A stretch of 64,000 nucleotides of DNA from Synechococcales cyanobacterium bin2.concoct.b11b12b14.033 (GCA_013298875.1 JAAFJH010000001.1:7030-71029); one strand, 5' to 3'; counted from the stretch's first letter, positions 38,510 to 53,811 are shown. Program-made: numbers and translations. Notes: generated by a model not told the origin, from the sequence alone.

Positions 38510-39964
38510 ATGTTTAAGAACATGGCAATCTTAAAAGAAGTATGTATTGAAAAATTTCGAGATATAAAAGATCTAATTTTACCAATTGGTGAGCGGCTTA
38601 CAATAATAGCTGGGCGAAATGGAACTTCCAAAACAACAATTTTAGGAATGCTAGCACATGGGTTTACTTTTGATGCAGAACATAAAACATTATTTGGATC
38701 TGCTTTTCATACAGACTTAAAAGAGGTACTCCAGCTAAGTGATGAAGAGATTCAAAGTACAAAAATTAATATAAATCTCCACTCTAAAGAAAGACCATTT
38801 ATTCAGCTAATACCTACTTATCATAAAGAGGAGGATAGACACAGAATTGTTGCAAGAGGAAAAGCGGAAGACTCAGAGGGAAAGCTTAAGGCAATAAGTT
38901 CAAAACATTCTTGTCCAGTAATTTACTTAACTCTTGGCAGATTAAGTCCACTATTTGAGCTTACATCTGCCGATCCAGATCATTCTTTTCAAGAGGAAAG
39001 CTTAAGTGAGGATGAGCTAAAAATAGGCCAACACTTACATAAAGCTTTAATTAACATTGATGAAGAGCTTATCAGTTTTGAAAGACTGACATCAAAGATA
39101 AAAACAAAAAGTGGAAAGAATACCAGAAAAATAGCTGCGGGAACGAAGAAGTATGGGAAATATGGCATGTCCGCAGGACAGGATACTATTGTTCAAATTG
39201 CTTTTGCCATCCTTTCCTTCAAGCGATTAAAAGAAAAAACTCAAGATTATAAAGGAGGTCTTTTATTAATTGATGAAGTTGAAGCGACCTTGCATCCATC
39301 TGCCCAGAGAAGTCTTATTCAAATACTAAATCAATATTCCAGAGAGTATAGCATGCAAATTGTTTTAACTACCCATTCATGGTCATTTCTTCAAGACAGT
39401 CGTAAGGAAAAATCGCAGATCAACTATATTACAAAAGATGAAGGGGAATTTAAATTACTTACAGATATGCAGGGGATAGAAGAAGATTTCTTTTCGAGAG
39501 CATTTGATCAAAGAAAATCAAAAATACAAATACCTGGTTTTTGTGAAGATAAATCTGCAAAGAAATTCTTGGAACTCATTCTTTCAAAAGAAAATAAGGA
39601 GCAAATTCATCTTGGAGTATTGGGTACACGTGATGTTATTGTGCAGCTGGCAAAGAATTTCTTTAAGTGTAAATTGAATCCTTGCGTATGGTTCTTGGAT
39701 GGAGATCAATTGAGATCTAAAAACTTAGAAAAGGGAGTACTCGTTTTACCTTCTAATAGGCAAGTTTGCCCAGAATTGGAAATTTACGAGTTTCTAGTTG
39801 GCTTAGAATCTTCAGATTCTTTGTGGCAATTAATTAGCTATACAAAATCTCAAATGTTTCACAAGTCAAATAGTGAGCCATTAAAGTCTAGGCCAGAAAA
39901 CAAAGCGAAAAGATTATGGGAAGATATCTCAAATACAAGTCGTAAAGTGAACATAAGACTTTAA
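38510..39964 (+). CDS. OLD-family ATP-dependent nuclease (ABC/AAA_21-type ATPase fused to a C-terminal Toprim domain)
   Basis: 484 aa; Walker A GRNGTSKTT, ABC-signature-like MSAGQ, Walker B LLLIDEVEATLHP, H-loop VLTTHS; then Toprim-like glutamate (GFCEDKSAKKFLE) and DxD (WFLDGDQ). Confidence 0.75.
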   Translation: MFKNMAILKEVCIEKFRDIKDLILPIGERLTIIAGRNGTSKTTILGMLAHGFTFDAEHKTLFGSAFHTDLKEVLQLSDEEIQSTKININLHSKERPFIQLIPTYHKEEDRHRIVARGKAEDSEGKLKAISSKHSCPVIYLTLGRLSPLFELTSADPDHSFQEESLSEDELKIGQHLHKALINIDEELISFERLTSKIKTKSGKNTRKIAAGTKKYGKYGMSAGQDTIVQIAFAILSFKRLKEKTQDYKGGLLLIDEVEATLHPSAQRSLIQILNQYSREYSMQIVLTTHSWSFLQDSRKEKSQINYITKDEGEFKLLTDMQGIEEDFFSRAFDQRKSKIQIPGFCEDKSAKKFLELILSKENKEQIHLGVLGTRDVIVQLAKNFFKCKLNPCVWFLDGDQLRSKNLEKGVLVLPSNRQVCPELEIYEFLVGLESSDSLWQLISYTKSQMFHKSNSEPLKSRPENKAKRLWEDISNTSRKVNIRL

Positions 39965-40082
39965 GTGGAAACGCAATATTAACTAAAATTATCAAGGAAT
40001 GGATAAAGCGGAATCAAGCGATAGTAGACGTATTTAATAAAGATTTTCAACAAACAATTATAAAAATCCAAAGGGCTAAAAA

Positions 40083-40949
40083 ATGAGCTTTGATTCACCT
40101 CTTCGATATCCAGGCGGCAAAGGTCGTCTAACAAACTACATTAAATCAATTTTTGAACTGAATGATTTAGTAGGTGGTGAATATGTTGAACCTTATGCTG
40201 GTGGTGCAGGAATAGCCTGTTCACTTTTACTTTCTGGTCATGTATCTAAAATTCACCTAAATGATTTAAACAAGTCTATTTATGCTTTTTGGTACTCAAT
40301 AATGAATAGTACTGATGAATTTTGTAAATTGATTTTTGACACTGAACTAACTATTGAGGAATGGTATAAACAACGAGAAATTCAAAAAGATTATGATTCA
40401 TGGCTTTCACTTGGTTTCTCTACATTTTTCTTAAATCGTACTAATCGATCTGGAATTATTACTGCTGGTGTAATTGGAGGATTGAAGCAAGATGGAGAAT
40501 GGAAATTAGATGCTCGATTCAATAAAAGCAATTTAATTTCAAGAATTGAAAAACTTGCGCAATATAAAAAACAAATTAAGTTATCTAATAAAGACGCTGT
40601 TATTTTTGTGAAGGAAACTATCAAAAAACTTCCTGAGAAATCTTTGATCTATTTTGATCCACCTTATTATATGAAAGGGCAAAAACTGTATGCAAATTAC
40701 TATGAGCATCATGATCATCTTCAAATCTCTTCTTTAATTCAAGAAAAAATAACGCAAAATTGGATTGTTTCTTACGATTATGTTCCTGAAATTGCAAAAA
40801 TGTATAAAGTTCAGTCAAAAGTTTATGATTTAAGTTACAGTGCTGGTAATCGTTATAAAGGTAAAGAAATAATGTTTTTTTCTCCCAATTTAAAGAAACC
40901 CACAACTATAAGCAAATCAAGCCTTTTGGAGAGAAAGAAGTTTAGCTAA
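40083..40949 (+). CDS. dam: DNA adenine methyltransferase, D12 (Dam) class
   Basis: 288 aa; N-terminal YPGGKGRL (Dam AdoMet/FxGxG-region equivalent), catalytic DPPY (IYFDPPYY); 118 bp downstream of the OLD-like gene, same strand. Confidence 0.85.
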   Translation: MSFDSPLRYPGGKGRLTNYIKSIFELNDLVGGEYVEPYAGGAGIACSLLLSGHVSKIHLNDLNKSIYAFWYSIMNSTDEFCKLIFDTELTIEEWYKQREIQKDYDSWLSLGFSTFFLNRTNRSGIITAGVIGGLKQDGEWKLDARFNKSNLISRIEKLAQYKKQIKLSNKDAVIFVKETIKKLPEKSLIYFDPPYYMKGQKLYANYYEHHDHLQISSLIQEKITQNWIVSYDYVPEIAKMYKVQSKVYDLSYSAGNRYKGKEIMFFSPNLKKPTTISKSSLLERKKFS

Positions 40950-43790
40950 ATATTTACCAGTAAAAGATTGTTTATTTTTTATAATTTGTATTGGGGTACC
41001 TTCGGCGATAATTTCCCCGCCAGCTTGTCCACCTTCAGGCCCCAAATCAATGATCCAATCAGCTTGTTTAATAACATCCAAATTATGCTCAATAATTAAA
41101 ACAGTATTTCCCGCCTCTGCTAATTTGTGTAGTACTAACATTAATTTTTCAATATCATACCAATGCAAGCCGGTAGTCGGCTCATCCAAAATATAAAGCG
41201 TTTTGCCAGTATGTCTGCGTGATAATTCGGTGGCCAATTTTATGCGCTGAGCTTCGCCACCAGAAAAGGTAGTTGCAGATTGACCTAATTGTATATAACC
41301 CAAGCCTACTTCTTCTAAAGTTTTAAGCTTATTATAAACCGCTGGAATTGACTCAAAGACATTGTTAGCTTGGCTTACCGTCAGATTGAGTATGTCGGAG
41401 ATCGAATAGCCTTTATATTTTACTTCTAAAGTTTCTTGATTATATCTTTTGCCATCACAGACTGCACATTTCACAAAAACCGAAGGCAAAAAATTCATTT
41501 CAATTTCTAAATGTCCTTGCCCATTACAAGCCTCACAACGCCCACCTTTGACATTAAACGAAAAACGCCCTGGGCCATAACCTCTTAGCTTAGCGTCTGA
41601 CATAGTAGCAAAAAGCTCTCTGATTGGTGTGAAAGCCCCCGTATAAGTAGCCGGATTAGAATGGGGAGTTCTTCCAATTGGGCTTTGGTCAATTTCAATT
41701 ACTTTGTCTATATTTTCCAGTCCTTCAATTAAATCAACACCCACTGGTTTTTGGCGATTTTTGAGTAAGCAACTTTGCAAATAAGGAAAAAGCAAATTCA
41801 TAATTAAACTTGACTTGCCCGAACCAGAAACTCCTGTAACCAAAACCATTTTTCCAAGCGGAATTTCAGTACTTACATTTTTTAAATTGTTTAAATGAGC
41901 ATTTGTAATTTTAATTGATTGATTATTTCCTTCTCGAGGTTTAATTGGGCCTTTTAATTGCCATTCTCCTGATAAATATTTGCCCGTTAAAGATTCTTCG
42001 GTTGAACAAATACTTTCAAAACTGCCGGTTGCTACTATTTCTCCGCCTTCTCTTCCAGCTTTTGGCCCAACATCAATAATCCAATCACAAGCTCTAATGG
42101 TATCTTCATCGTGCTCAACCACTAAAACTGTATTTCCCAAGTTTTTTAATTTTTTTAAAGTTTCGATTAAGCGGTCATTATCTCTTTGGTGCAGCCCAAT
42201 GCTAGGTTCATCCAAAACATATAAAACTCCCGATAAACCAGACCCAATTTGTGTCGCTAATCTAATTCTTTGGGCTTCTCCGCCCGATAAAGTTGATGCA
42301 CCACGAGACAAGTTTAAATAATTTAAGCCCACATCTTTCAAAAACTGCAAACGATTTTTAATTTCCAGAATAATTCTTTCCGCTACTTTTAAGTCAAATT
42401 CACTAACTAAAGAAGGTATTTTCTCAAAAAACGCTAAAGTATCATCAATGCCTAAACTTGTTATTTCATTAATTGATAGATCGCCAAATTTAACTGCCGA
42501 AGATTCTTTACGCAGACGAGAACCATTACATTCCGGGCAAGTCTGAAATGACATATAACCTTCGAGGTCGCTTTTGGCTTTGTCATTACTGGAGCTGCAA
42601 GCTTTTTGATATTTTTTGTTTAAATTATTAATTACTCCTTCAAAGGGCATATTAAAAGTTAAAAGATCGTCCCCATCAAAAGAATCATAACTTAATTCAA
42701 TTGGCTCATCGGAACCGTATAAAACAGTTTTTCTAATTTCTCGGCTCAAGGATTTCCAGGGCGTGGCGGGTTTAATTTTAAAAGCTTTGCAAACCGAATT
42801 TAATAATTGTACATAATAATTAGTGCTTGACTTTGCCCATGGCACAATACAATTCAGCAAAGCCATATCTGTATTTGGAATTAATTTAGAGAGGTCAAAT
42901 TCTTGGGTATGTCCTAATCCATGGCACTCTGGGCAAGCACCTTCTGGGCTATTAAAAGAAAATAATTTGGGTGAAAGAGGCGGCAAACTTCCATGTCCTT
43001 GCGGGCAAGCTAAATGCTCCGAAAAGTGTAGCTCAGAAGTAATTTCTTGATCGTCATTCACAATTGCAAATTTAGCAAAGCCATTTCCTTTACGCAGAGC
43101 CAAACCCAAACTATCTGCTAGGCGAGAACGGTTTTCCAATTTGACACTTAAACGGTCAATGACAATTTCGATATTATGTTTTTTATTTTTAGTTAATTTA
43201 ATTTCCTCATCCAATGAATAAATTATTTCATTTACCTTAACTCGCAAAAATCCTTCTTTTTTTAATTTGCCAAATAAAGTTGTATGGTCACCTTTTTTCA
43301 GTTCAGCTACTGGAGCTAAGATTAATCCTTTTTGATCTTCGGCCTTGCTAAAAACTTCATCAATAATTTGATCAATACTTTGTTTGCTTACAGCAGTGCC
43401 ACAAATTGGGCAAAATTGTTTTCCGACACGTCCAAATAAAAGCCTTAAGTGATCGTAAATTTCGGTTACTGTTCCAACGGTTGAACGTACATTATGGCTA
43501 GCTGACTTTTGGTTAATAGCAATGGCGGGGCTAAGTCCTTCAATTGAATCAATGTCTGGTTTATCAACTTGGCCTAAAAACTGCCGAGCATAAGAAGATA
43601 AAGATTCGACATAACGGCGCTGGCCTTCTGCAAAAATGGTATCAAAAGCTAAAGAACTTTTGCCAGAGCCAGAAACACCTGTTATAACCACCAATTGGTT
43701 TTTAGGAATGCAAACATCAATATTTTTTAAATTATGTTCTCTTGCTCCAGTAACTTTAATCCATTCTTGGTTTTTCCCATCAGCAGTCAT
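40917..43790 (-). CDS. uvrA: Excinuclease ABC subunit A
   Basis: 957 aa; two ABC ATPase modules (GVSGSGKSSL twice), zinc-finger cysteines, UvrB-binding and insertion domains in canonical order; last 11 codons overlap dam's last 11 codons on the opposite strand. Confidence 0.97.
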   Translation of the reverse strand: MTADGKNQEWIKVTGAREHNLKNIDVCIPKNQLVVITGVSGSGKSSLAFDTIFAEGQRRYVESLSSYARQFLGQVDKPDIDSIEGLSPAIAINQKSASHNVRSTVGTVTEIYDHLRLLFGRVGKQFCPICGTAVSKQSIDQIIDEVFSKAEDQKGLILAPVAELKKGDHTTLFGKLKKEGFLRVKVNEIIYSLDEEIKLTKNKKHNIEIVIDRLSVKLENRSRLADSLGLALRKGNGFAKFAIVNDDQEITSELHFSEHLACPQGHGSLPPLSPKLFSFNSPEGACPECHGLGHTQEFDLSKLIPNTDMALLNCIVPWAKSSTNYYVQLLNSVCKAFKIKPATPWKSLSREIRKTVLYGSDEPIELSYDSFDGDDLLTFNMPFEGVINNLNKKYQKACSSSNDKAKSDLEGYMSFQTCPECNGSRLRKESSAVKFGDLSINEITSLGIDDTLAFFEKIPSLVSEFDLKVAERIILEIKNRLQFLKDVGLNYLNLSRGASTLSGGEAQRIRLATQIGSGLSGVLYVLDEPSIGLHQRDNDRLIETLKKLKNLGNTVLVVEHDEDTIRACDWIIDVGPKAGREGGEIVATGSFESICSTEESLTGKYLSGEWQLKGPIKPREGNNQSIKITNAHLNNLKNVSTEIPLGKMVLVTGVSGSGKSSLIMNLLFPYLQSCLLKNRQKPVGVDLIEGLENIDKVIEIDQSPIGRTPHSNPATYTGAFTPIRELFATMSDAKLRGYGPGRFSFNVKGGRCEACNGQGHLEIEMNFLPSVFVKCAVCDGKRYNQETLEVKYKGYSISDILNLTVSQANNVFESIPAVYNKLKTLEEVGLGYIQLGQSATTFSGGEAQRIKLATELSRRHTGKTLYILDEPTTGLHWYDIEKLMLVLHKLAEAGNTVLIIEHNLDVIKQADWIIDLGPEGGQAGGEIIAEGTPIQIIKNKQSFTGKYLAKLLSLQKA

Positions 43791-43957: not shown

Positions 43958-45652
43958 ATGGCTAACGAAAGAATTACAGAAAATATTGTGAGGAATCTTT
44001 TAAGGGATAAAGGGTATTATGATAATGATAAAATCATAATTGAAGAACAATCATCTGCCAACCCCCAAATAAACAAATTACTGAAATTAGCCTCTAAGAG
44101 TGGTACGGGAAAAGGTTATCCTGAATTTATTATATCCTTTAAAAACAAACCTAATGACCTTATAGTCATTGAATGTAAGGGGAGCATTACATATCACGAG
44201 AGTAAGGATAGAGAGCAATATAAGAATTATGCAGTTGACGGGGTCTTGCTGTATGCCTCTTATTTGAAAGATTCGTTTAACGTAACAGCTATTGCGGTAA
44301 GTGGTGAAAATGAGAGAGAGAAAAAAATATCATCTTTTATTTGGCTGAGAGAGCATTACACCTATAAAAACATTCAGGATAAAATACTATTAGCTCCTGA
44401 TGAAATTTCCAATATAATAGTAGAGCAATCCAAACCTATTTCAGAAGATGAGTTAATAAAAAAGGCTATTGAATATAACTCCTTTTTACACAAATACTCT
44501 ATACCCGAAGTTGAAAGATGTACCCTGATAAGCTCAATATTGATAGCGTTACAAGACAAACCTTTTCTAAGCAGCTACAAAGAATATACAAACAACAGGG
44601 ATTTAATAGAGAACTTAATTGAGGCTTGCAAGCGTGTTTTAAAAAGTAAGGAATTAGAAGATAGAAAGACAGAAGTAATCATTGATGAATACTCAAAGTT
44701 TAAAAACAACAATGGTTCATTTAACTCTCAGACATTCTATAATAAAAAGACTAAAAGCGACGAAGCAAACACTATACTTAGAGATTTTATAATTCTCATT
44801 AATGAAAATATACTTCCTTATATCAATAATAGTGAATTTGATGTATTAGGTAAGTTCTATACACAGTTTATAAGATATGCAGGTAGCGATAAAAAAACGG
44901 GGTTAGTCTTAACACCTACTCATATAACAGATTTATTTTGTGAAATAGCCGATTTAGGTATAGATGATATAGTTTTTGATGAGTGCTGCGGTACTGCAGG
45001 TTTTTTAGTCTCAGCTATGAATTATATGCTAAAGAAAGCAGGGAACAACTCTGAAAAGAAGAAAATAATTAAGTCATCTCAATTATTGGGTATTGAAGAT
45101 CGTTCTGATATGTTTTCTCATGCTTGCTCTAATATGATGATGAGGGGGGACGGCAAAAGCCACATTCTTTACGGCGACTGTTTCAAGGAAGAAAATAAAA
45201 GTATTATTAGAGCAAATAAACCGACAAAAGCCTTTTTAAATCCTCCATACCAAGATGGGAATGCAGCCGAACAATTAGAATTTATCGAAAATGCTTTAAG
45301 TTGCCTAGTAAAAGATGGGCTCTGTATTGCCATTTGTCAAATGTCAACAACTGTTTCGAGTAATAAGGATGTAATAGAAGTTCGGGAACGGATATTGGCC
45401 AACCATACATTAGAAGCCACATTTTCAATGCCTATCGATTTGTTTCACCCCGTCGGAGTTAATACGAGCATTTTGATCTTCAAGGCACATCATGTGCATC
45501 CCCAAAGGAAAAAAACATTTTTTGGGTATTTTAAAAACGATGGTTTTGTGAAAACCAAAAATCATGGAAGGGTAGATAAGAACAATCAGTGGGACGAAAT
45601 TAAAAAAACTTGGCTTAATGCTTACATTAATAAAGAAAGCATTGTAGGATAA
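43958..45652 (+). CDS. N6-adenine DNA methyltransferase (gamma class, HsdM/Eco57I-like) with N-terminal restriction-endonuclease-like domain; no adjacent HsdS/HsdR
   Basis: 564 aa; N-terminal PEFIISF...LIVIECKG resembles a (P)D/E...(D/E)xK nuclease or HsdR-N-like core. The methyltransferase has motif I VFDECCGTAGFL, then motif IV NPPY (FLNPPYQDG); it has no target-recognition domain and no specificity subunit nearby. Confidence 0.7.
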   Translation: MANERITENIVRNLLRDKGYYDNDKIIIEEQSSANPQINKLLKLASKSGTGKGYPEFIISFKNKPNDLIVIECKGSITYHESKDREQYKNYAVDGVLLYASYLKDSFNVTAIAVSGENEREKKISSFIWLREHYTYKNIQDKILLAPDEISNIIVEQSKPISEDELIKKAIEYNSFLHKYSIPEVERCTLISSILIALQDKPFLSSYKEYTNNRDLIENLIEACKRVLKSKELEDRKTEVIIDEYSKFKNNNGSFNSQTFYNKKTKSDEANTILRDFIILINENILPYINNSEFDVLGKFYTQFIRYAGSDKKTGLVLTPTHITDLFCEIADLGIDDIVFDECCGTAGFLVSAMNYMLKKAGNNSEKKKIIKSSQLLGIEDRSDMFSHACSNMMMRGDGKSHILYGDCFKEENKSIIRANKPTKAFLNPPYQDGNAAEQLEFIENALSCLVKDGLCIAICQMSTTVSSNKDVIEVRERILANHTLEATFSMPIDLFHPVGVNTSILIFKAHHVHPQRKKTFFGYFKNDGFVKTKNHGRVDKNNQWDEIKKTWLNAYINKESIVG

Positions 45653-46342: not shown

Positions 46343-47338
46343 ATGCCTCAAAATCAGAGACTCTCGCAGTTGACTTTATTAAGTTTATCTTTATCTTTTT
46401 CACCCAGTATCATATCAATTGCAGCTTCCAACTCTTTGGCAGAAATTCAATCCGCCAGCCAAAATCAGATGATAGCCATTGCTTATGGAGAATATTATCC
46501 ACCGACTAATCATAATCATCAGCCGCAGCAACAATATTACCCAAGGCCGCAGCAAAGATATTATCCAAGACCACCCAGAAACAGATTTCCAAGTGGGGGA
46601 TATGCCACAACTCCCAGAATACCAATTTGTCCCATGCCGCCTGCTCAGCCACAACCAATGCCGCCCTTAGATGATCCACACCATCCTGTGGCTTATAAGC
46701 CAGCTATTTACCTTTATCCCGAAAAGCCAACTGAAGTTGAAGTTTTTATTGATCCGAAAATTAACTTAACTATTGATATTCCAAAATATAATCCCCAAAA
46801 AGGTTGGAAAGTTTTAGCTTATCCAAATGGCTTACTCGAAGATCTTCAATTAGAACAAACTGATCCTGAATCTTATAAAAAATATTTAAATTCAACTGGA
46901 CTAGAATATGCTTATAGTTCTGCTCTCAGAGGTACTTATCCTTATTTGTATTGGGAAGGTACTCTTATCGAAGAAGCCAGTAAAAAAACTAATGGTTGGA
47001 TAGTTTCAGACTCTGAAATCAAAACTTTTTTAAGTGCAAGACTTGATGAAATGAATTTCAGTCGTATTGAGAAAAAAGACTTTTTAGATTATTGGGTCAT
47101 TAAAATCAAAGAAAAACAAAAACCTTTCTATTGGATTTCTTTCGTTTTAACTAAAGAATTTGACCAAAAGCACCCCCTAAAAATTGTGCCTAAGCCAGAT
47201 TCAATCATGAGAGTATTAATTGAAGTAGCTCCATTGGATGAAAAGCCAAGTAAATTACCTGAACCCCAAAAATTGGAAAGTATTATTCGTAAAGGTTTTA
47301 CTGTTTTAGAATGGGGGGGTTATTTCGTGAAGAAATAA
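46343..47338 (+). CDS. Hypothetical secreted protein with proline-rich YYPRP-repeat linker
   Basis: 331 aa; signal-like N-terminus, Q/P-rich tract with two YYPRP(Q/P) repeats, about 230-aa globular C-terminal domain of unknown function. Confidence 0.45.
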   Translation: MPQNQRLSQLTLLSLSLSFSPSIISIAASNSLAEIQSASQNQMIAIAYGEYYPPTNHNHQPQQQYYPRPQQRYYPRPPRNRFPSGGYATTPRIPICPMPPAQPQPMPPLDDPHHPVAYKPAIYLYPEKPTEVEVFIDPKINLTIDIPKYNPQKGWKVLAYPNGLLEDLQLEQTDPESYKKYLNSTGLEYAYSSALRGTYPYLYWEGTLIEEASKKTNGWIVSDSEIKTFLSARLDEMNFSRIEKKDFLDYWVIKIKEKQKPFYWISFVLTKEFDQKHPLKIVPKPDSIMRVLIEVAPLDEKPSKLPEPQKLESIIRKGFTVLEWGGYFVKK

Positions 47339-47354: not shown

Positions 47355-48599
47355 TTAAACTGAATTACCGGCTACCCAGCCAGTTGTCCAAGCTGATTGC
47401 AGATTAAAACCGCCTGTAAAACCGTCAACATTAAGCACTTCTCCTGCCCAATAAAGACCATTTACTATTTTAGATTGCATAGTATTTGGGTTTATTTCAT
47501 TAAATTCAAGGCCTCCAGCTGTTACAATTTCTTCGCCAGATGGACGAATACCTGAAATATTGATTTTTAATTTTATTAAACTTTCAACAATTTGTCCTAA
47601 TTCTTTTTTGCTAATTTCAGATAAGGTTTTTTGGGTATTAAGGCTAATTTGCGAAAGTATTTCGTCTTTTAATCTCTCGGGGCAAACATTTTCCAGGCAA
47701 TTAATTACTTTTTTCCGGGCATTGTTTTTCCATTTTTCTTTTAAGGCATTTTCCAGGTCAGCTACTTTTAAATCAGGAAATAAATTTAAAAAAAGTTCAT
47801 AAATACCTTGGTTATAATCTTGGCCGGCGGCTAAACTGCTTATTTTAAAAACTCCTGGCCCAGTAATTCCCCAATGTGTAAATAAAAGTCCTCCCGTCTG
47901 TTCAGCTATTTTTTTTGAGTTATGGCATAAAGTTAATTTTATATTAGCCAAAGTTAAACCTTTCAAGTTATGCACCCAATTATCTGAGCTTAAATAGCCA
48001 GTCAGAGAAGGTTGAGCTTTAATAACTTTATGACCTGCTTTAATGGCCCATTCATAAGCGTCTCCGGTTGAGCCAGTTTTTTGATAGCTCATTCCCCCAC
48101 AGGAAACTAAAATATTTTTGCTATAAATAATTTCTCCATTTTCCAAAACGATTCCACGAACTATTTGATTTTCAATTAATAAATTTTTGACATTTTGCTT
48201 ATATAAAATTTCTACTTTGGCTTGGCTACAGGCTTTTAATAAAGTATTTAAAACATCGGCTGAATTATCGGTAATTGGAAAAACACGGCCATCGTCTTCA
48301 GTTTTGGTTTTTAAGTTTCGGCTCTCAAACCAATTAATAGTATCAATATGGCTAAATTTAGTTAAAAGTCCCCATAAAAACTTGCTTCCCCGCGGGTAAT
48401 TTTGCAAAAAATCTTTGATTTCTAAATATTTATTATTAGTAATATTACATCTACCACCACCAGAGATCAGGATTTTACGACCAGCTTTTTCGCCTTTTTC
48501 GAGCAGTAAAACTTTTAAACCACGCTCGCCAGCTTGAATTGAGGCCATTAAACCAGCAGCACCTGCTCCAATCACTATTAAATCATAAGTTGAATTCAC
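47355..48599 (-). CDS. HI0933/BaiN-family FAD-dependent flavoprotein (NAD(P)/FAD oxidoreductase)
   Basis: 414 aa; N-terminal dinucleotide fold YDLIVIGAGAAGLMA and GGGRCN motif characteristic of HI0933-like proteins. Confidence 0.8.
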   Translation of the reverse strand: MNSTYDLIVIGAGAAGLMASIQAGERGLKVLLLEKGEKAGRKILISGGGRCNITNNKYLEIKDFLQNYPRGSKFLWGLLTKFSHIDTINWFESRNLKTKTEDDGRVFPITDNSADVLNTLLKACSQAKVEILYKQNVKNLLIENQIVRGIVLENGEIIYSKNILVSCGGMSYQKTGSTGDAYEWAIKAGHKVIKAQPSLTGYLSSDNWVHNLKGLTLANIKLTLCHNSKKIAEQTGGLLFTHWGITGPGVFKISSLAAGQDYNQGIYELFLNLFPDLKVADLENALKEKWKNNARKKVINCLENVCPERLKDEILSQISLNTQKTLSEISKKELGQIVESLIKLKINISGIRPSGEEIVTAGGLEFNEINPNTMQSKIVNGLYWAGEVLNVDGFTGGFNLQSAWTTGWVAGNSV

Positions 48600-48754
48600 T
48601 AAATGTTTTTGCCTCTGCGCTTCAAGTTGACCGAGTTTATCCTTGTATAATAACTTTTTTAATTGCTAAGGTAATTTAAGAATAAAAAATGGGAACAAAA
48701 TATACTAGTTTGTGCTTCATTAAGGTTATTGGATTATCAGAAATTAGGTTTTAA

Positions 48755-49003
48755 ATGCTTACGGAATTATATAATAGAGCGGAAGAATTGATTTTAACAG
48801 AAGAACAAAAGCAGGCTTTAAATTTGCTTAAGTGTATTCAAACATATCGAGTTTATCCTTCGGTGGCTCAGTTGCTGGCTAGTCGGTCAAAATTAGTTTA
48901 TCAGTTAGATGACATTTATAAATTATGGAGACGCTTTGATCGTTTATCGAATAAAGAATTAGCTGAATTAGCGATGGAATTGATTAATGAAATTTGGGAT
49001 TAA
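48755..49003 (+). CDS. Hypothetical small protein
   Basis: 82 aa helical ORF; no recognisable motif. Confidence 0.3.
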   Translation: MLTELYNRAEELILTEEQKQALNLLKCIQTYRVYPSVAQLLASRSKLVYQLDDIYKLWRRFDRLSNKELAELAMELINEIWD

Positions 49004-49112
49004 TTAGGATTTGGCTGCTTAATATAAACTTTTAGCTTGGAAATAATTAATATTAACAAATAATTAAAATCATCCTTCGTAACAAAAATACAACTTAAAA
49101 TCGTATGTATAT

Positions 49113-50129
49113 TTGTTGTTAGACTTGCTTATGATTATTCGCCCAGGATTAAGTGTACTCAGACAAGCTTTTTCTCTTACAGATGTTAGTCAAGCTAAAG
49201 CTCCAGTTGAAGTTGAAGATCAATGGAGGAGTGGACTTCGCTTACCAGATGGAATTAATTCTCAGGATTCAGGAATAATACCTACTTCTAATAATAAGCA
49301 GATAACGATTGAAGAGTCTGGCCTATCAGCTTGGGCTTTTAATATCTTGAAAAAAACAGGTTTACTAACTGTAGAAAAAATACTACAATCCATTCAAGAA
49401 AATAATGGAAATCTTCCAAAGGGTACGGTAGAAAATTCAAGCAAAACAGGGCGTGAAATTATAAATTATGCACTAACTAAAAATGCTGAGCAGGAAGGTG
49501 AAACGTCAATTGAAGAGTCTGGCTTGTCAACTAGAGCTTTGAAAATCTTAACTACAGAAGGTTTACTAACTGTAGAAAAAATACTACAATCCATTCAAGA
49601 AAATAATGGAAATCTTCCAGAGGGTACAGTAAAAAACTCAAGCGATACAGGGCGTGAAATTATACATTATGCACTAACTAAAAATGCTGAGCAGGAAGGT
49701 GAAACGTCAATTACGGATACGGAACTTGGTTTAGAGATACAGTATTTTAGTGTTTTATTGAGGAGCGGTTTATTCACCGCCGAAGATGTACTCGAAGCAA
49801 TTCAAGAAAATAATGGAGCTCTTCCTTATGGTACATTAGAAAACTCAAGCCAAACAGGACGTAAAATTATAAATTTTGCCTTAAATATAAATGCTAAGAA
49901 AAAAGATAAAACGTCAATTACGGAACTTAACTTAGACATAAGGTATATTAATGCTTTGTTAAAAAAAGGTTTATTTACGGTTGAAGATGCATTCAAAGCA
50001 CTTTCCCAAAAACAAACAATTTGTAGAGATCAAGGAGTAATTAAAGTAGCTGTTTTAGGGTTTTGGGCTAGACAAAGTGAACAAGCTAAACTTTTGCCTA
50101 CTGGATTAAAAGCAAAAGAGGCGGACTAG
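49113..50129 (+). CDS. Protein composed of four tandem RNA-polymerase-alpha-CTD-like helix-hairpin-helix repeats
   Basis: 338 aa; four units of 67-69 aa (IEESGLSxxALKILxxxGLLTVEKILQ...GRExIxYAL...) match the alpha-CTD pattern E-L-x-L-S-V-R-x-x-N-x-L-K-x-x-G-I-x-T-V-x-D-L. The underlying 201-bp DNA repeats R1 and R2 are nearly identical. Confidence 0.55.
   Translation: MLLDLLMIIRPGLSVLRQAFSLTDVSQAKAPVEVEDQWRSGLRLPDGINSQDSGIIPTSNNKQITIEESGLSAWAFNILKKTGLLTVEKILQSIQENNGNLPKGTVENSSKTGREIINYALTKNAEQEGETSIEESGLSTRALKILTTEGLLTVEKILQSIQENNGNLPEGTVKNSSDTGREIIHYALTKNAEQEGETSITDTELGLEIQYFSVLLRSGLFTAEDVLEAIQENNGALPYGTLENSSQTGRKIINFALNINAKKKDKTSITELNLDIRYINALLKKGLFTVEDAFKALSQKQTICRDQGVIKVAVLGFWARQSEQAKLLPTGLKAKEAD
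49308..50129 (+). repeat. Tandem array of four 201-207-bp coding repeats (starts 49308, 49509, 49710, 49917)
   Basis: R1 vs R2 about 90% nucleotide identity over 201 bp; R3 and R4 are progressively diverged. Confidence 0.8.
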
Positions 50130-50181
50130 TTAAAGCCAACCTCTTAAGATTTTAAATTATCAAGTTTTAAGTATCTAAAGC

Positions 50182-50688
50182 TTATAAATTATTTTTGAAA
50201 TAACTATAGTCTTCTTCATTTTTAGGTTTTGCACCTACAATGATTTTACCGCCTTTGATTTGTTCCTCATACTCTTTAGCTTCACTTTCGGCTATGCCCA
50301 TACCTACTAATGCTCCCACTAATCCACCAGTAAGACCACCAGCTCCGGCTCCGGCAAGTGCGGCAGCAAGAGGTCCGGCTACTACTAATCCTAAACCAGG
50401 AAGAAATAATGAAGTACCAATTGCAGCTATAGCAGCAGTGGTTGCTCCAATAACACTACCAACAGCAGAACCTACACCACTTCCTTCTTTAGCAGCTTCT
50501 TCTAAGCGTTCTGGATGATTCATTGTACCGTGATATTTTTTTCTGGTTTCATCCGACATCATCAAAGCAATTTCTTTATCGGTATAGCCTCTAGCTTTAT
50601 ATTTATCATAGGCAGACATTGCACTATCATAATCGGCATAATCTTTTCCAAAAAAGTTCTTTTGGTTATTTTGAGTTGAGGTTTCCAT
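50182..50688 (-). CDS. Glycine-zipper (GxxxG-rich) membrane protein, general-stress-protein-like
   Basis: 168 aa; hydrophilic N-terminus, then about 60 aa of G/A-rich helices (GSGVGSAVGSVIGATTAAIAAIG...GLTGGLVGALVGMG); the coding strand is GC-rich relative to its surroundings. Confidence 0.45.
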   Translation of the reverse strand: METSTQNNQKNFFGKDYADYDSAMSAYDKYKARGYTDKEIALMMSDETRKKYHGTMNHPERLEEAAKEGSGVGSAVGSVIGATTAAIAAIGTSLFLPGLGLVVAGPLAAALAGAGAGGLTGGLVGALVGMGIAESEAKEYEEQIKGGKIIVGAKPKNEEDYSYFKNNL

Positions 50689-50820
50689 AAAATTATCCTA
50701 TTGTTATCTGCTCACTTAAAAAGCCTACCACCCTAGATAATTAATAAACCTTAAAATTTAATTAAGATGAAAATCCAAATTATAACAAAAACTATGCCAT
50801 TTGTAAAGTTTATTTTTTAT

Positions 50821-52422
50821 TTATAAGCAAAACCAATTCAATAAAGATTTTCCGGTCATTTGGTCAGGCTTTTCGATGTGCATTAATTTTAAAACCGTGG
50901 GAGCAATATCACATAAAGCACCATTTTGAAGTTTATGGTTTTTATATTCTTCACTCACTAAAATAAAAGGTACCAAATTTAAACTATGAGCCGTTCTAAT
51001 ACTTCCATCCGGATTAATCATTTGGTCAGCATTTCCATGGTCAGCGGTAATTAATAAATTAACTTTTTTCTTCAAACATAATTCACTTAAGTCTTTCAAA
51101 GCTAAATCAATATATTCAATTGCTTTGGAAGCGGCTGTAAAAATACCTGAATGCCCAACCATATCTGCATTAGCAAAATTAGCCACAATTAAATCAAATT
51201 TATCGCTTTCAATCGCATTAATTAAAGCACTCATAATTCCTGGTAAGCTCATTTCGGGCTGCAGGTCATAAGTGGCAACTTTTGGAGAAGGTATTAAAAT
51301 TCTTTCTTCACCGTCAAAAGGATTTTCCAGGCTTTGATTGAAAAAGCTAGTTACATGTCTAAACTTTTCAGTTTCTGCTATACGTAATTGTTTTAAGCCT
51401 GTTTGTGACACAATTTCTCCCAAACTCAAGCTTTTATCCTGGGCAGGAAAGGAAGATTCATGAAAAGCAACTGGTACAATTGGGTTAGCACCAGCTTCTG
51501 CACAGTCTAAAGAATTATCATAGCTAGTAAGACAAACATAATTAATTTGTGGAAAAATATCTCTTTCAAAACCGGTAAAATTCTTTTGGGTTAAAACCGT
51601 TGTTATTTGCCTAGCCCGGTCAGGACGGAAATTAAAGAAAATTACTCCATCTCCATTTTTGATAGTGCTGTCTAGACCTACAAAATAAGTTGGCTGTATA
51701 AACTCATCACTGTTTTCGGCTGGAGTATATAAACCATGTGGTCTAGTATAAGCTTCCTGAACTGCACTGGTGGGGTTTTGGCTAATAAGCCCTTGATTTT
51801 TAGTTAATAAATTCCAGTATTTTTTAATTCTTTCCCAATTATTATCACGATCCATAGCCCAATAGCGGCCACAGACTGAGCCAATTTTGCCATTATTTGT
51901 ACGGCTTAATTTGTTTTGTAAATCTTTTAATAAATGAAGACAATTTTTCTGTGGATCATCTCGGCCGTCTAGGATTGGATGTATGAAAAAGCTGATATTA
52001 TCTCTCTCGGCCCAATCGATTAAAGCATATAAATGCCCTAAATGACTATGCACATCCCCTTCACTCAATAAACCAATTAAGTGCAATTTTTTATTAGTAG
52101 CTTTAGTTTGGCTAAATAAACTTTGCAAAGTTTGATTTTGAAAAAAGCTTTTATTTTCAATGGCTTCGCTGATTAAAGTTAATTTTTGTTTTGAGGCACG
52201 TCCAGCACCAATATTTTCATGACCCACTTCAGAATTGCCCATTACTCCTACTGGTAAACCAACGGCTTTTCCACTTGCCTCCAGTTGACTATTTGGATAA
52301 TCCTCAAGCAATTGATTAAAAACGGGCGGATTAACTTTAGCAATGGCACTTTGCTCTTTATTCGGATTTATACCCCAACCATCTAAAATTAATAAAACGG
52401 TTTTTTTATTTTCTTCAGTCAT
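50821..52422 (-). CDS. gpmI: 2,3-bisphosphoglycerate-independent phosphoglycerate mutase
   Basis: 533 aa; N-terminal LLILDGWGI, catalytic Ser region, metal-binding ADHGN and TADHGNA motifs. Confidence 0.95.
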   Translation of the reverse strand: MTEENKKTVLLILDGWGINPNKEQSAIAKVNPPVFNQLLEDYPNSQLEASGKAVGLPVGVMGNSEVGHENIGAGRASKQKLTLISEAIENKSFFQNQTLQSLFSQTKATNKKLHLIGLLSEGDVHSHLGHLYALIDWAERDNISFFIHPILDGRDDPQKNCLHLLKDLQNKLSRTNNGKIGSVCGRYWAMDRDNNWERIKKYWNLLTKNQGLISQNPTSAVQEAYTRPHGLYTPAENSDEFIQPTYFVGLDSTIKNGDGVIFFNFRPDRARQITTVLTQKNFTGFERDIFPQINYVCLTSYDNSLDCAEAGANPIVPVAFHESSFPAQDKSLSLGEIVSQTGLKQLRIAETEKFRHVTSFFNQSLENPFDGEERILIPSPKVATYDLQPEMSLPGIMSALINAIESDKFDLIVANFANADMVGHSGIFTAASKAIEYIDLALKDLSELCLKKKVNLLITADHGNADQMINPDGSIRTAHSLNLVPFILVSEEYKNHKLQNGALCDIAPTVLKLMHIEKPDQMTGKSLLNWFCL

Positions 52423-52503: not shown

Positions 52504-53811
52504 TTAAACGTTCAAATTAATACGAGCTAAATTCTGGGCACCTGGGAGTTTAACTAAAAGAACATTACTTTCAATTACCGAATTTCTTTCTAAAACTGGG
52601 CCTACCAAAGCACTGCAACCAATACGTCCATAGGCAGGAATTTGGTTGGCCAATAAGCAGTTAGCGGCTGGTATTTGTCTATTCCATTTAACCGGAAACG
52701 ATTTTTGCGTAAAGAAATCAATAATTTTTGTTCTCTCGGCACTCATCGCAGCTCTTAAAGCCCCATTTAACTGAATACTATGAGGACTATTATTTTTTAC
52801 TGTCCAGAAAACTTTAGCTTCGCTGCCATCAGGTGATACAGCCACCGAATTTAATTCATAAACAATATCTTTAATTGGGCCTTGCACGGTTGCAATTGTA
52901 TAAGCAGCGGGTGAACTCCCTCCTTCGATTACTTGGCTGTAAGCCTGATTATCTTGATTTTCCGAACGTAATATTCCCTGGGTATTATAATCATTAATAT
53001 TTCTTCTTTCAGCTTGTCCATAGTTTGGGCTCATATCCTCGGGGTTATAATTTTGATTTTCAGGTGTTATGCCATTCCAAATTTCCACCGACGAAGCTGT
53101 GTTTGGATTAGGGCAATTGCAAATACAATGAATTTGAGTTGGATGATTATTATAATAATTATTTACTCTAGCAATATGTTTGTCTAGTTGAGTTGGTGGT
53201 CTTTTTTTAATAGTATGTGAAGTGTCGCCTGGCGGAATTGCCCTCTGATAGTGATTATCAGGCGAATTGTTTTGATTATTATAATTAGTCGGTGAATTTT
53301 GGGCTGGGTTTTGGCTTAATTCATTATCATTATTAGATTGGACATTATTATTTTCGGGTACTGGAGCTGGAGAGGGCGGCAAATTCAAGCTACTTTCAGT
53401 ATTTAATCCTTCTTTTGAATTTTCTTGCACTTCCTTATTTTCATTAGGCAAGTCGAATGGCAAAGTATTTTCTAAAGCGGCTCGATAAGCACTCAAATTA
53501 ATAGCAAAATCATTTACTAAACTTTGGGTAAAATTTTTATCTTTCAATTCGGTTAATAAATTATCTTCTAATAATTGTTCGTCAATCACTCTCTGAGATA
53601 GGTCATCAACTTCTTGATTGCTAGTAGTTGCTTCATTATTTTGAGCTTGTTCTTCGAGGCCTAAAATAGCGTCATTAGCGGACAGATTAACAGCTTGCTC
53701 GGTGAACTGTGTATTTTGAGATTGTTGCCAAAAATAACGGCCAGCAAAAAATATAATTACTCCTAAAATACAAATTGCTAACAAGCGAGAGATGATATTA
53801 ATGCTTATCAT
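52504..53811 (-). CDS. Hypothetical membrane-anchored protein with Asn/Gln/Pro-rich low-complexity region
   Basis: 435 aa; N-terminal TM helix, about 250 aa of N/Q/P/S-rich sequence, about 150-aa C-terminal globular domain. Confidence 0.45.
   Translation of the reverse strand: MISINIISRLLAICILGVIIFFAGRYFWQQSQNTQFTEQAVNLSANDAILGLEEQAQNNEATTSNQEVDDLSQRVIDEQLLEDNLLTELKDKNFTQSLVNDFAINLSAYRAALENTLPFDLPNENKEVQENSKEGLNTESSLNLPPSPAPVPENNNVQSNNDNELSQNPAQNSPTNYNNQNNSPDNHYQRAIPPGDTSHTIKKRPPTQLDKHIARVNNYYNNHPTQIHCICNCPNPNTASSVEIWNGITPENQNYNPEDMSPNYGQAERRNINDYNTQGILRSENQDNQAYSQVIEGGSSPAAYTIATVQGPIKDIVYELNSVAVSPDGSEAKVFWTVKNNSPHSIQLNGALRAAMSAERTKIIDFFTQKSFPVKWNRQIPAANCLLANQIPAYGRIGCSALVGPVLERNSVIESNVLLVKLPGAQNLARINLNV

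Follow-up and report, generated by a model that had tools for sequence, protein, structure and literature searches.

Why would a bacterium encode several tandem copies of a module that resembles the C-terminal domain of the RNA polymerase alpha subunit (alpha-CTD), without the rest of that subunit? The question is raised by an open reading frame (ORF) at 49113..50129 on the plus strand of a 64,000-nucleotide (nt) stretch of DNA from Synechococcales cyanobacterium bin2.concoct.b11b12b14.033 (GCA_013298875.1, JAAFJH010000001.1:7030-71029), which we refer to as the window. Normally the alpha-CTD is a lone domain, tethered to RNA polymerase (RNAP), that reads activators and upstream promoter DNA. 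Our results show that the ORF encodes 3.5 alpha-CTD-like units in tandem. Overall, we lean slightly towards the view that it is a lineage-specific, strain-variable accessory gene, and that its product, an alpha-CTD-type tandem array, would act as a multivalent adaptor.

Tandem modules of the alpha-CTD type

The only Pfam family that the whole protein matches above the cut-off is RNA_pol_A_CTD (PF03118), with 38.1 bits against a cut-off of 23.8 (E 1.3e-9, in three stretches), and the source database lists the same family for this protein. NCBIfam matches at E <= 1e-3 are rpoA models alone; they align at their CTD, with scores far below their cut-offs. When an alignment of the units was compared with one of 41 short free-standing alpha-CTD proteins, hhalign returned a probability of 96.4% (E 1.2e-9 over 33 columns). 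A hidden Markov model (HMM) built from those 41 proteins alone matches all four units (59 bits, E 9.3e-18, among 408 ORFs of the six-frame translation of the window). Searched against the PDB, the four-unit profile finds RNAP alpha subunits as its six best matches, at residues ~250-279 (E 7.6e-4 to 0.036), and phmmer with the whole protein finds matches at E ~0.1-0.5 only. The matches of single units to PF03118 span profile positions 11/13 to 38/43 of 67, that is, the first helix-hairpin-helix (HhH) motif.

Generic HhH families (HHH, HHH_2, HHH_3, HHH_5 and HHH_8) do not match the protein in Pfam at E <= 1, and neither SAM nor NusA families in Pfam give a profile match. The relation to the alpha-CTD that the earlier note had proposed therefore stands: no different HhH family matches the units. 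Compared by sequence, the first HhH of each module is specifically of the RNAP alpha-CTD type. The N-terminal domain of the alpha subunit (alpha-NTD; RNA_pol_A_bac, RNA_pol_L) has no match in the protein, which is hence not part of RNA polymerase. Genuine rpoA, which the earlier note had suggested looking for, is absent from the window, because the HMM of free-standing alpha-CTDs finds nothing else in its six-frame translation. Neither are the units a recent copy of the CTD of the host's own rpoA: when 1.84 billion representatives were scanned in full with HMMER, no RpoA came within E 1e-3, and the only two proteins inside that limit both have multiple alpha-CTDs.

The gene itself is complete. 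It encodes 338 amino acids, begins with TTG and is uninterrupted; gene callers chose an in-frame ATG at 49131 in two independent assemblies (L084 and L085). GC content is ~33% throughout the window, at which a stop codon is expected about every 13 codons, and the probability that 338 codons stay free of stops by chance at the local base composition is ~3e-12. With a GC content of 0.348, and of 0.209 at third codon positions, the ORF is similar to the adjacent genes and native-like in codon composition. The whole protein has an isoelectric point (pI) of 5.2.

All parts of the gene lie on the plus strand. A 63-amino-acid (aa) N-terminal region (49113..49301), in which no domain or family was detected (no Pfam match, low AlphaFold2 confidence), is followed by unit 1 (49302..49502, 67 aa) and unit 2 (49503..49703, 67 aa), the latter with the most canonical first HhH (LSTRALKIL) and 88% nt identity to unit 1. 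Unit 3 (49704..49910, 69 aa) contains a 2-codon insertion and is ~67% identical to units 1 and 2 at the nt level. What remains of unit 4 (49911..50021, 37 aa) is a first HhH alone; 85 nt of it match unit 3 at 73% identity. Its 37 residues are similar to the other units (shuffle P <= 0.0002), and the sequence that follows them, including the C-terminal tail of 35 aa plus stop (50022..50129), shows no similarity to the second half of any unit in DNA or protein (shuffle P 0.12-0.72). The four modules of the earlier note are thus real as tandem units of 67-69 aa, except that they number 3.5, followed by a 35-aa tail, since only the first half of unit 4 resembles units 1-3. Across the repeats there are no frameshifts, and five residues of the first HhH (L, G, L, T and E), all of them core residues, are invariant in all four units.

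Growth of the array by duplication

Successive in-frame duplications of a 201-bp unit built up the array. By Tandem Repeats Finder, the period is 201 bp (67 codons) with 2.0 copies, 90% matches, 0 indels and a score of 670, and a repeat search finds three in-register 201-nt copies at 100/90/68%, plus the 85-nt match between units 3 and 4. Judged by divergence, the lineage of unit 4 would be the oldest, followed by that of unit 3 and then by units 1 and 2.

The first two repeats had been described as about 90% identical and recently duplicated. Their identity is indeed 88-90% (by direct count 24 mismatches in 201 nt, i.e., 88.1% nt and 80.6% aa identity), but the divergence is a mosaic, and a single recent duplication describes it poorly. 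Within the first 56 nt fall 17 of the 24 mismatches (binomial P 1.5e-5), so that identity is ~70% in the segment encoding helix 1 and ~95% in the remainder, where runs of 61 and 38 nt are 100% identical (P 0.002 for the longest). Codons 1-19 have a synonymous divergence (dS) of 0.66 and a nonsynonymous divergence (dN) of 0.31 (dN/dS 0.47); the corresponding values for codons 20-67 are 0.064 and 0.046 (dN/dS 0.73). This pattern fits a partial homogenisation of the 3' two-thirds, by gene conversion, over an older duplication.

Two other explanations of the mosaic were rejected. Positive selection on helix 1 is not compatible with dN/dS values of 0.43-0.47 in that segment, where dS is raised as much as dN. 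After re-duplication with an offset, units 2 and 3 would be nearly identical in their first 56 nt, which they are not. Across all pairs of units dN/dS is 0.37-0.84, below 1 in every comparison.

Relatives and known systems

The ORF protein, encoded on one NCBI contig of 90 kb, forms a singleton cluster: among 5.8 billion proteins it is found only as itself. Genome, metagenome (exact DNA and protein), phage and plasmid collections hold no relatives. The two proteins within E 1e-3 in the HMMER scan, P0002 and P0003, are 29-35% identical to it. P0002 is a protein of 182 aa with three strong tandem alpha-CTDs (140 bits) that also matches several generic HhH families; it shares with the ORF protein the tandem layout and the junction between units, 'TSI..LGLSTR'. 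P0003 (707 aa, from a 4296-bp contig of GCA_016648615.1) shares the tandem layout, with two to three alpha-CTD-like modules at its C-terminus, and carries in front of them a Sigma70_r4 domain that is absent from the ORF protein. In this one polypeptide both promoter-upstream readers of RNA polymerase are joined. Residues R265 and N268 and the G-x-K hairpin (numbering of E. coli rpoA as in NC_000913.3), of which R265 is the key contact of the alpha-CTD with the UP element, are kept in P0002 and P0003. The genomic contexts of the two are uninformative.

How unusual is such a protein? The earlier note had considered a free-standing array of alpha-CTDs unusual, and this holds for the array only. 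A single profile search yielded the 41 short free-standing alpha-CTD proteins (P0004-P0044; 49-128 aa), some of them named 'DNA-directed RNA polymerase subunit alpha C-terminal domain-containing protein', and BFVD contains phage examples, such as those of Rhodococcus phage Finch and Mycobacterium phage Mithril. Like the ORF protein, these bacterial and phage proteins have a module of the PF03118 type without an alpha-NTD. Unlike it, each contains a single canonical domain whose second HhH (NFGEKS) is intact; that motif is found in none of the 3.5 divergent modules of the ORF protein. Free alpha-CTD modules are hence an existing annotated class, within which tandem arrays are rare, with two others found here. 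A search of the literature found nothing relevant on free-standing or tandem alpha-CTD-like proteins.

Better known systems resemble the ORF protein in part. The alpha-CTD of RNAP itself (PF03118; PDB 1z3e_B, 1doq, 1coo) is present as a single copy, in contrast to 3.5 tandem copies without an alpha-NTD; its helix 3 and second hairpin correspond to a loop in the model of the ORF unit, and its DNA-contact residues are mostly lost in the ORF units. NusA carries two tandem (HhH)2 repeats, AR1 and AR2 (PDB 1u9l, 2jzb), compared with 3.5 here, and their function is protein binding; the ORF protein has neither a sequence match to NusA nor NusA core domains. In topoisomerase V of Methanopyrus kandleri, an (HhH)2 array of many tandem modules gives multivalent, sequence-independent DNA binding. 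The concept of a multivalent tandem HhH array is alike, but topoisomerase V is an unrelated enzyme with canonical motifs from a different HhH family.

Host lineage, assembly support and strain variation

The iPGM encoded next to the locus shares 85% identity with its counterpart in a 'Candidatus Caenarcaniphilales' metagenome-assembled genome (MAG; L001). Judging from this match and from the named homologues of an 82-aa ORF upstream of the array gene, the host is a bacterium of the Caenarcaniphilales (Melainabacteria), that is, a non-photosynthetic relative of cyanobacteria. The gene beside iPGM in L001, the closest relative at species level, differs from that in the window: iPGM is followed there by a 1118-aa protein (L001 6438..9794, minus strand) packed with 'RGRVFNADGTPVNASDFLVSTS' repeats of ~45 aa.

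Independent contigs confirm the gene at both of its ends. Logan contigs from two sequencing runs (L084 from SRR9948933 and L085 from SRR9948926) match the window at 99.9% identity and end at 49387, inside the gene; a third (L087 from SRR9948924) is 100% identical and ends at 49160, just inside it. From the 3' side, contigs of the first two runs match from 49683 (L101, SRR9948933) and 49969 (L102, SRR9948926) onwards. The ends at 49387 and 49683 lie ~30 nt inside stretches common to different units, as is expected when an assembly with k=31 meets a real repeat. The central ~295 nt (49388..49682), and hence the exact count of copies of the unit 1/2 type, rest on one MAG assembly.

For the comparison of strains, we used an upstream 82-aa ORF and a downstream 168-aa gene as anchors of the locus. 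Two strains lack the array gene. In L083 (JGI 3300079869), 95-97% identical to the window, the alignment breaks off at 49111 and resumes at 50106. A 145-bp filler (L083 1763..1907) without a significant match anywhere in the window replaces the ORF, of which the last 24 nt are kept together with the downstream genes. In L086 (SRR26069601; ~97% identical) both the ORF and the 168-aa gene are missing, and right behind the stop codon of the 82-aa ORF begins a relic of ~85 nt, which corresponds to the final 54 nt of the array ORF plus downstream sequence and has a 1-nt indel. The last 24-54 nt of the tail thus survive as non-coding relics in strains without the gene. The simplest explanation of two deletions with different end points, both with 3' relics, is an ancestral gene at this locus that disappeared on two occasions. 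Repeated loss among strains that are 95-97% identical also means that the gene is dispensable.

The 168-aa gene (50182..50688, minus strand) encodes a protein with a weakly YflT-like N-terminus (Pfam 2.1e-4, below the cut-off) and a glycine-zipper membrane segment. The presence of this gene, too, varies between strains: L083 has it, and it is absent from L086 (939..1042). The 82-aa ORF (48755..49003, plus strand) belongs to no Pfam family and is conserved at 57-100% identity across Caenarcaniphilales and Vampirovibrionales. In more distant relatives (L096-L099) it occurs in other contexts, between FliJ-like and FliR (Bac_export_1) genes, and this setting suggests a possible role in flagellar export. 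The adjacency to the glycine-zipper gene, to which the earlier note had drawn attention, does not make that gene a partner: L083 has the neighbour without the array gene, and L086 has neither. Given also that the 82-aa ORF occurs in other contexts, the array gene is not functionally tied to either neighbour.

Between the 82-aa ORF and the array gene lies an AT-rich intergenic region (49004..49112, plus strand) with weak matches to -10 and -35 elements; it is kept in L083, the strain without the gene. Promoter-like matches upstream of the gene are no commoner than in shuffled sequence, and no convincing promoter or terminator rises above the shuffles. Rfam has no match on either strand of 48500..50900, and searches of PHROGs and PADLOC returned no significant phage or defence family for the ORF protein or its immediate neighbours.

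What could the array do?

A model of unit 2 was obtained with AlphaFold2 from a 45-row alignment of the four units and the 41 free-standing alpha-CTD proteins. It has a predicted local distance difference test score (pLDDT) of 83.9 and a predicted TM-score (pTM) of 0.73, with helices at residues 16-24, 30-39 and 54-72 of the construct; a loop of 14 residues takes the place of helix 3 and the second hairpin of the alpha-CTD. The module is accordingly predicted to be a compact three-helix domain, SAM-like or (HhH)2-like. Among the top Foldseek matches of the model in BFVD are phage proteins named 'RNA polymerase alpha subunit C-terminal domain-containing'.

For the function of the array, our tentative preference, which we hold at somewhat below even chances, is a multivalent nucleic-acid-binding or tethering protein of low affinity and low specificity. 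Each module would make one weak DNA contact of the HhH type, avidity would come from the array, and the variable surface of helix 1 might set the preference of each module. We arrive at nucleic-acid binding because members of this fold family are overwhelmingly binders of the DNA backbone or minor groove, because the closest relatives, P0002 and P0003, keep the DNA-contact residues (and P0003 is fused to sigma region 4, which reads the -35 element), and because multiplying weak binders is a common route to avidity.

A number of our results weigh against an array of DNA-binding alpha-CTD modules. Taken singly, the units score below the threshold of PF03118 (16.2 and 13.9 bits for units 1 and 2, no match for unit 3, 15.4 bits for unit 4). 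All profile matches stop within the first ~30-33 residues, and the second half of the unit, including the motif 'G+EI' that the earlier note had read as part of an alpha-CTD pattern, is recognised by no profile, so that the pattern holds for the first HhH only. The prediction of the whole protein by AlphaFold2 from a single sequence is unusable (pLDDT 37), and although the best Foldseek matches of the unit 2 model in the PDB are mostly alpha-CTDs (TM 0.45-0.58, E >= 0.04), no Foldseek match has an E-value of 0.03 or less. The fold result is supportive and not independent, because the alignment that guided it consisted of alpha-CTD proteins. At the positions that contact the UP element, units 1 to 4 have W, R, Q and R for R265, N, K, S and N for N268, and I, I, V and A for C269; both R265 and N268 are therefore kept in two of four units. 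For the hairpin G296-K297-K298-S299, neither of the two plausible alignments gives a clear counterpart. Units 1-3 are acidic (pI 4.7-5.1), as is the alpha-CTD of E. coli (pI 5.1). Finally, constraint between units is only moderate by dN/dS (0.37-0.57) and the gene is dispensable; it may be partly decayed.

Some of these results would suit a protein-protein scaffold or adaptor, whose modules have lost DNA binding and act like AR1 and AR2 of NusA or like tandem SAM domains. The partners of the modules might be a transcription factor or the alpha-CTD of RNAP, and variation in helix 1 would translate into a different partner or a different affinity. The acidity of units 1-3, the loss of R265 and N268 in half of the units and the clustering of differences between the youngest units in helix 1 all agree with such a role. 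However, a genuine alpha-CTD from E. coli is equally acidic, dN/dS in helix 1 does not exceed 1 and gives no sign of positive diversification, the sequence shows no relation to NusA or SAM families, and no conserved neighbour points to a partner. We consider a scaffold unlikely, if the most serious of the alternatives. The same replacements of contact residues speak against the decoy or competitor that the earlier note had suggested, in which free alpha-CTDs compete for UP elements or titrate class I/II activators and thereby dampen activated transcription globally. That the first HhH is specifically alpha-CTD-like, and that several copies without an alpha-NTD might, in principle, occupy the ligands of the alpha-CTD and yet bring no RNAP, is what makes a decoy conceivable. 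Yet R265, N268, C269, G296, K298 and S299 are mostly replaced, the equivalent of the '287 determinant' (helix 3) that contacts activators is modelled as a loop of different sequence, and the absence of RpoA at E 1e-3 makes mimicry of the host's alpha-CTD surface unlikely. The gene was also lost without replacement in close strains. A decoy is not supported by our results and seems very improbable to us.

One could also argue that the gene is functionless or decaying: a captured alpha-CTD-like module would have expanded into repeats and would now be drifting and disappearing. It is a singleton in all databases searched, closely related strains have lost it twice, its last unit is truncated, its functional residues are degenerate and a dN/dS of 0.4-0.6 between units suggests relaxed constraint. 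A drifting gene would hardly be expected to keep a frame of 338 codons intact at 33% GC with no frameshift in the repeats, the core of the first HhH invariant in four units, a native-like codon composition and dN/dS below 1 in all comparisons, and we regard decay as improbable, less so than a decoy. That the array is an artefact, chimeric or mis-joined in the MAG, is essentially excluded. It is true that the MAG contig alone covers 49388..49682 and that short-read assemblies break there, but contigs from other runs agree with it on both sides and stop as a true repeat predicts, and the units differ enough for ordinary reads (24 mismatches, with no identical run longer than 61 nt).

Beyond the nucleic-acid-binding or tethering protein that we tentatively prefer, a wider proposal would unite the ORF protein, P0002 and the C-terminus of P0003 as an unrecognised class of transcription modulators. 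Each of their modules would read a short AT-rich minor-groove site or a specific regulator through its variable helix 1, and duplication and gene conversion, by reshuffling the number of units and the sequence of helix 1, would lead to a strain-specific rewiring of promoter-upstream contacts, for example as a decoy or bridge for alpha-CTD ligands. We consider this a long shot.

Other genes in the window

Several genes further upstream on the plus strand resemble defence genes. At 38510..40949, a 484-aa AAA_15/AAA_21 ATPase (PADLOC ATPase-Toprim_I-B, 1.6e-22; similar to AriA, PtuA, GajA and Old) is followed by a 288-aa D12 N6-adenine methyltransferase (PADLOC PD-Lambda-5_B, 6e-121), and the pair is probably a two-gene anti-phage system like PD-Lambda-5. 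A 564-aa protein encoded at 43958..45652 matches models of Type IIG restriction enzyme-methyltransferases (PADLOC 2.9e-107; Pfam N6_Mtase). Next to this Type IIG-like gene lies uvrA (40917..43790, minus strand), the 3' end of which shares ~33 nt with the D12 methyltransferase gene.

Two more proteins in the window contain segments rich in particular residues. The 331-aa protein at 46343..47338 (plus strand) has a repeat rich in Pro, Gln and Tyr near its N-terminus (QQYYPRPQQRYYPRPP) and matches no family in Pfam, NCBIfam, PHROGs or PADLOC. The 435-aa protein at 52504..53811 (minus strand), with an N-terminal hydrophobic segment and a long low-complexity middle rich in Asn, Gln and Pro, has no significant family in Pfam or NCBIfam.

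Implications

The importance of the locus is modest. It is an accessory gene of one uncultured lineage, moderately unusual and not a new kind of system. It nevertheless provides a clean natural example of how a repeat protein evolves: units were added step by step and partly homogenised, the last one was cut short, and sister strains lost the gene more than once. Should the protein prove functional, it would show that an alpha-CTD module can leave the polymerase and then multiply and diversify, and the detached array would be a possible route to multivalent promoter-proximal binding or to the titration of regulators.

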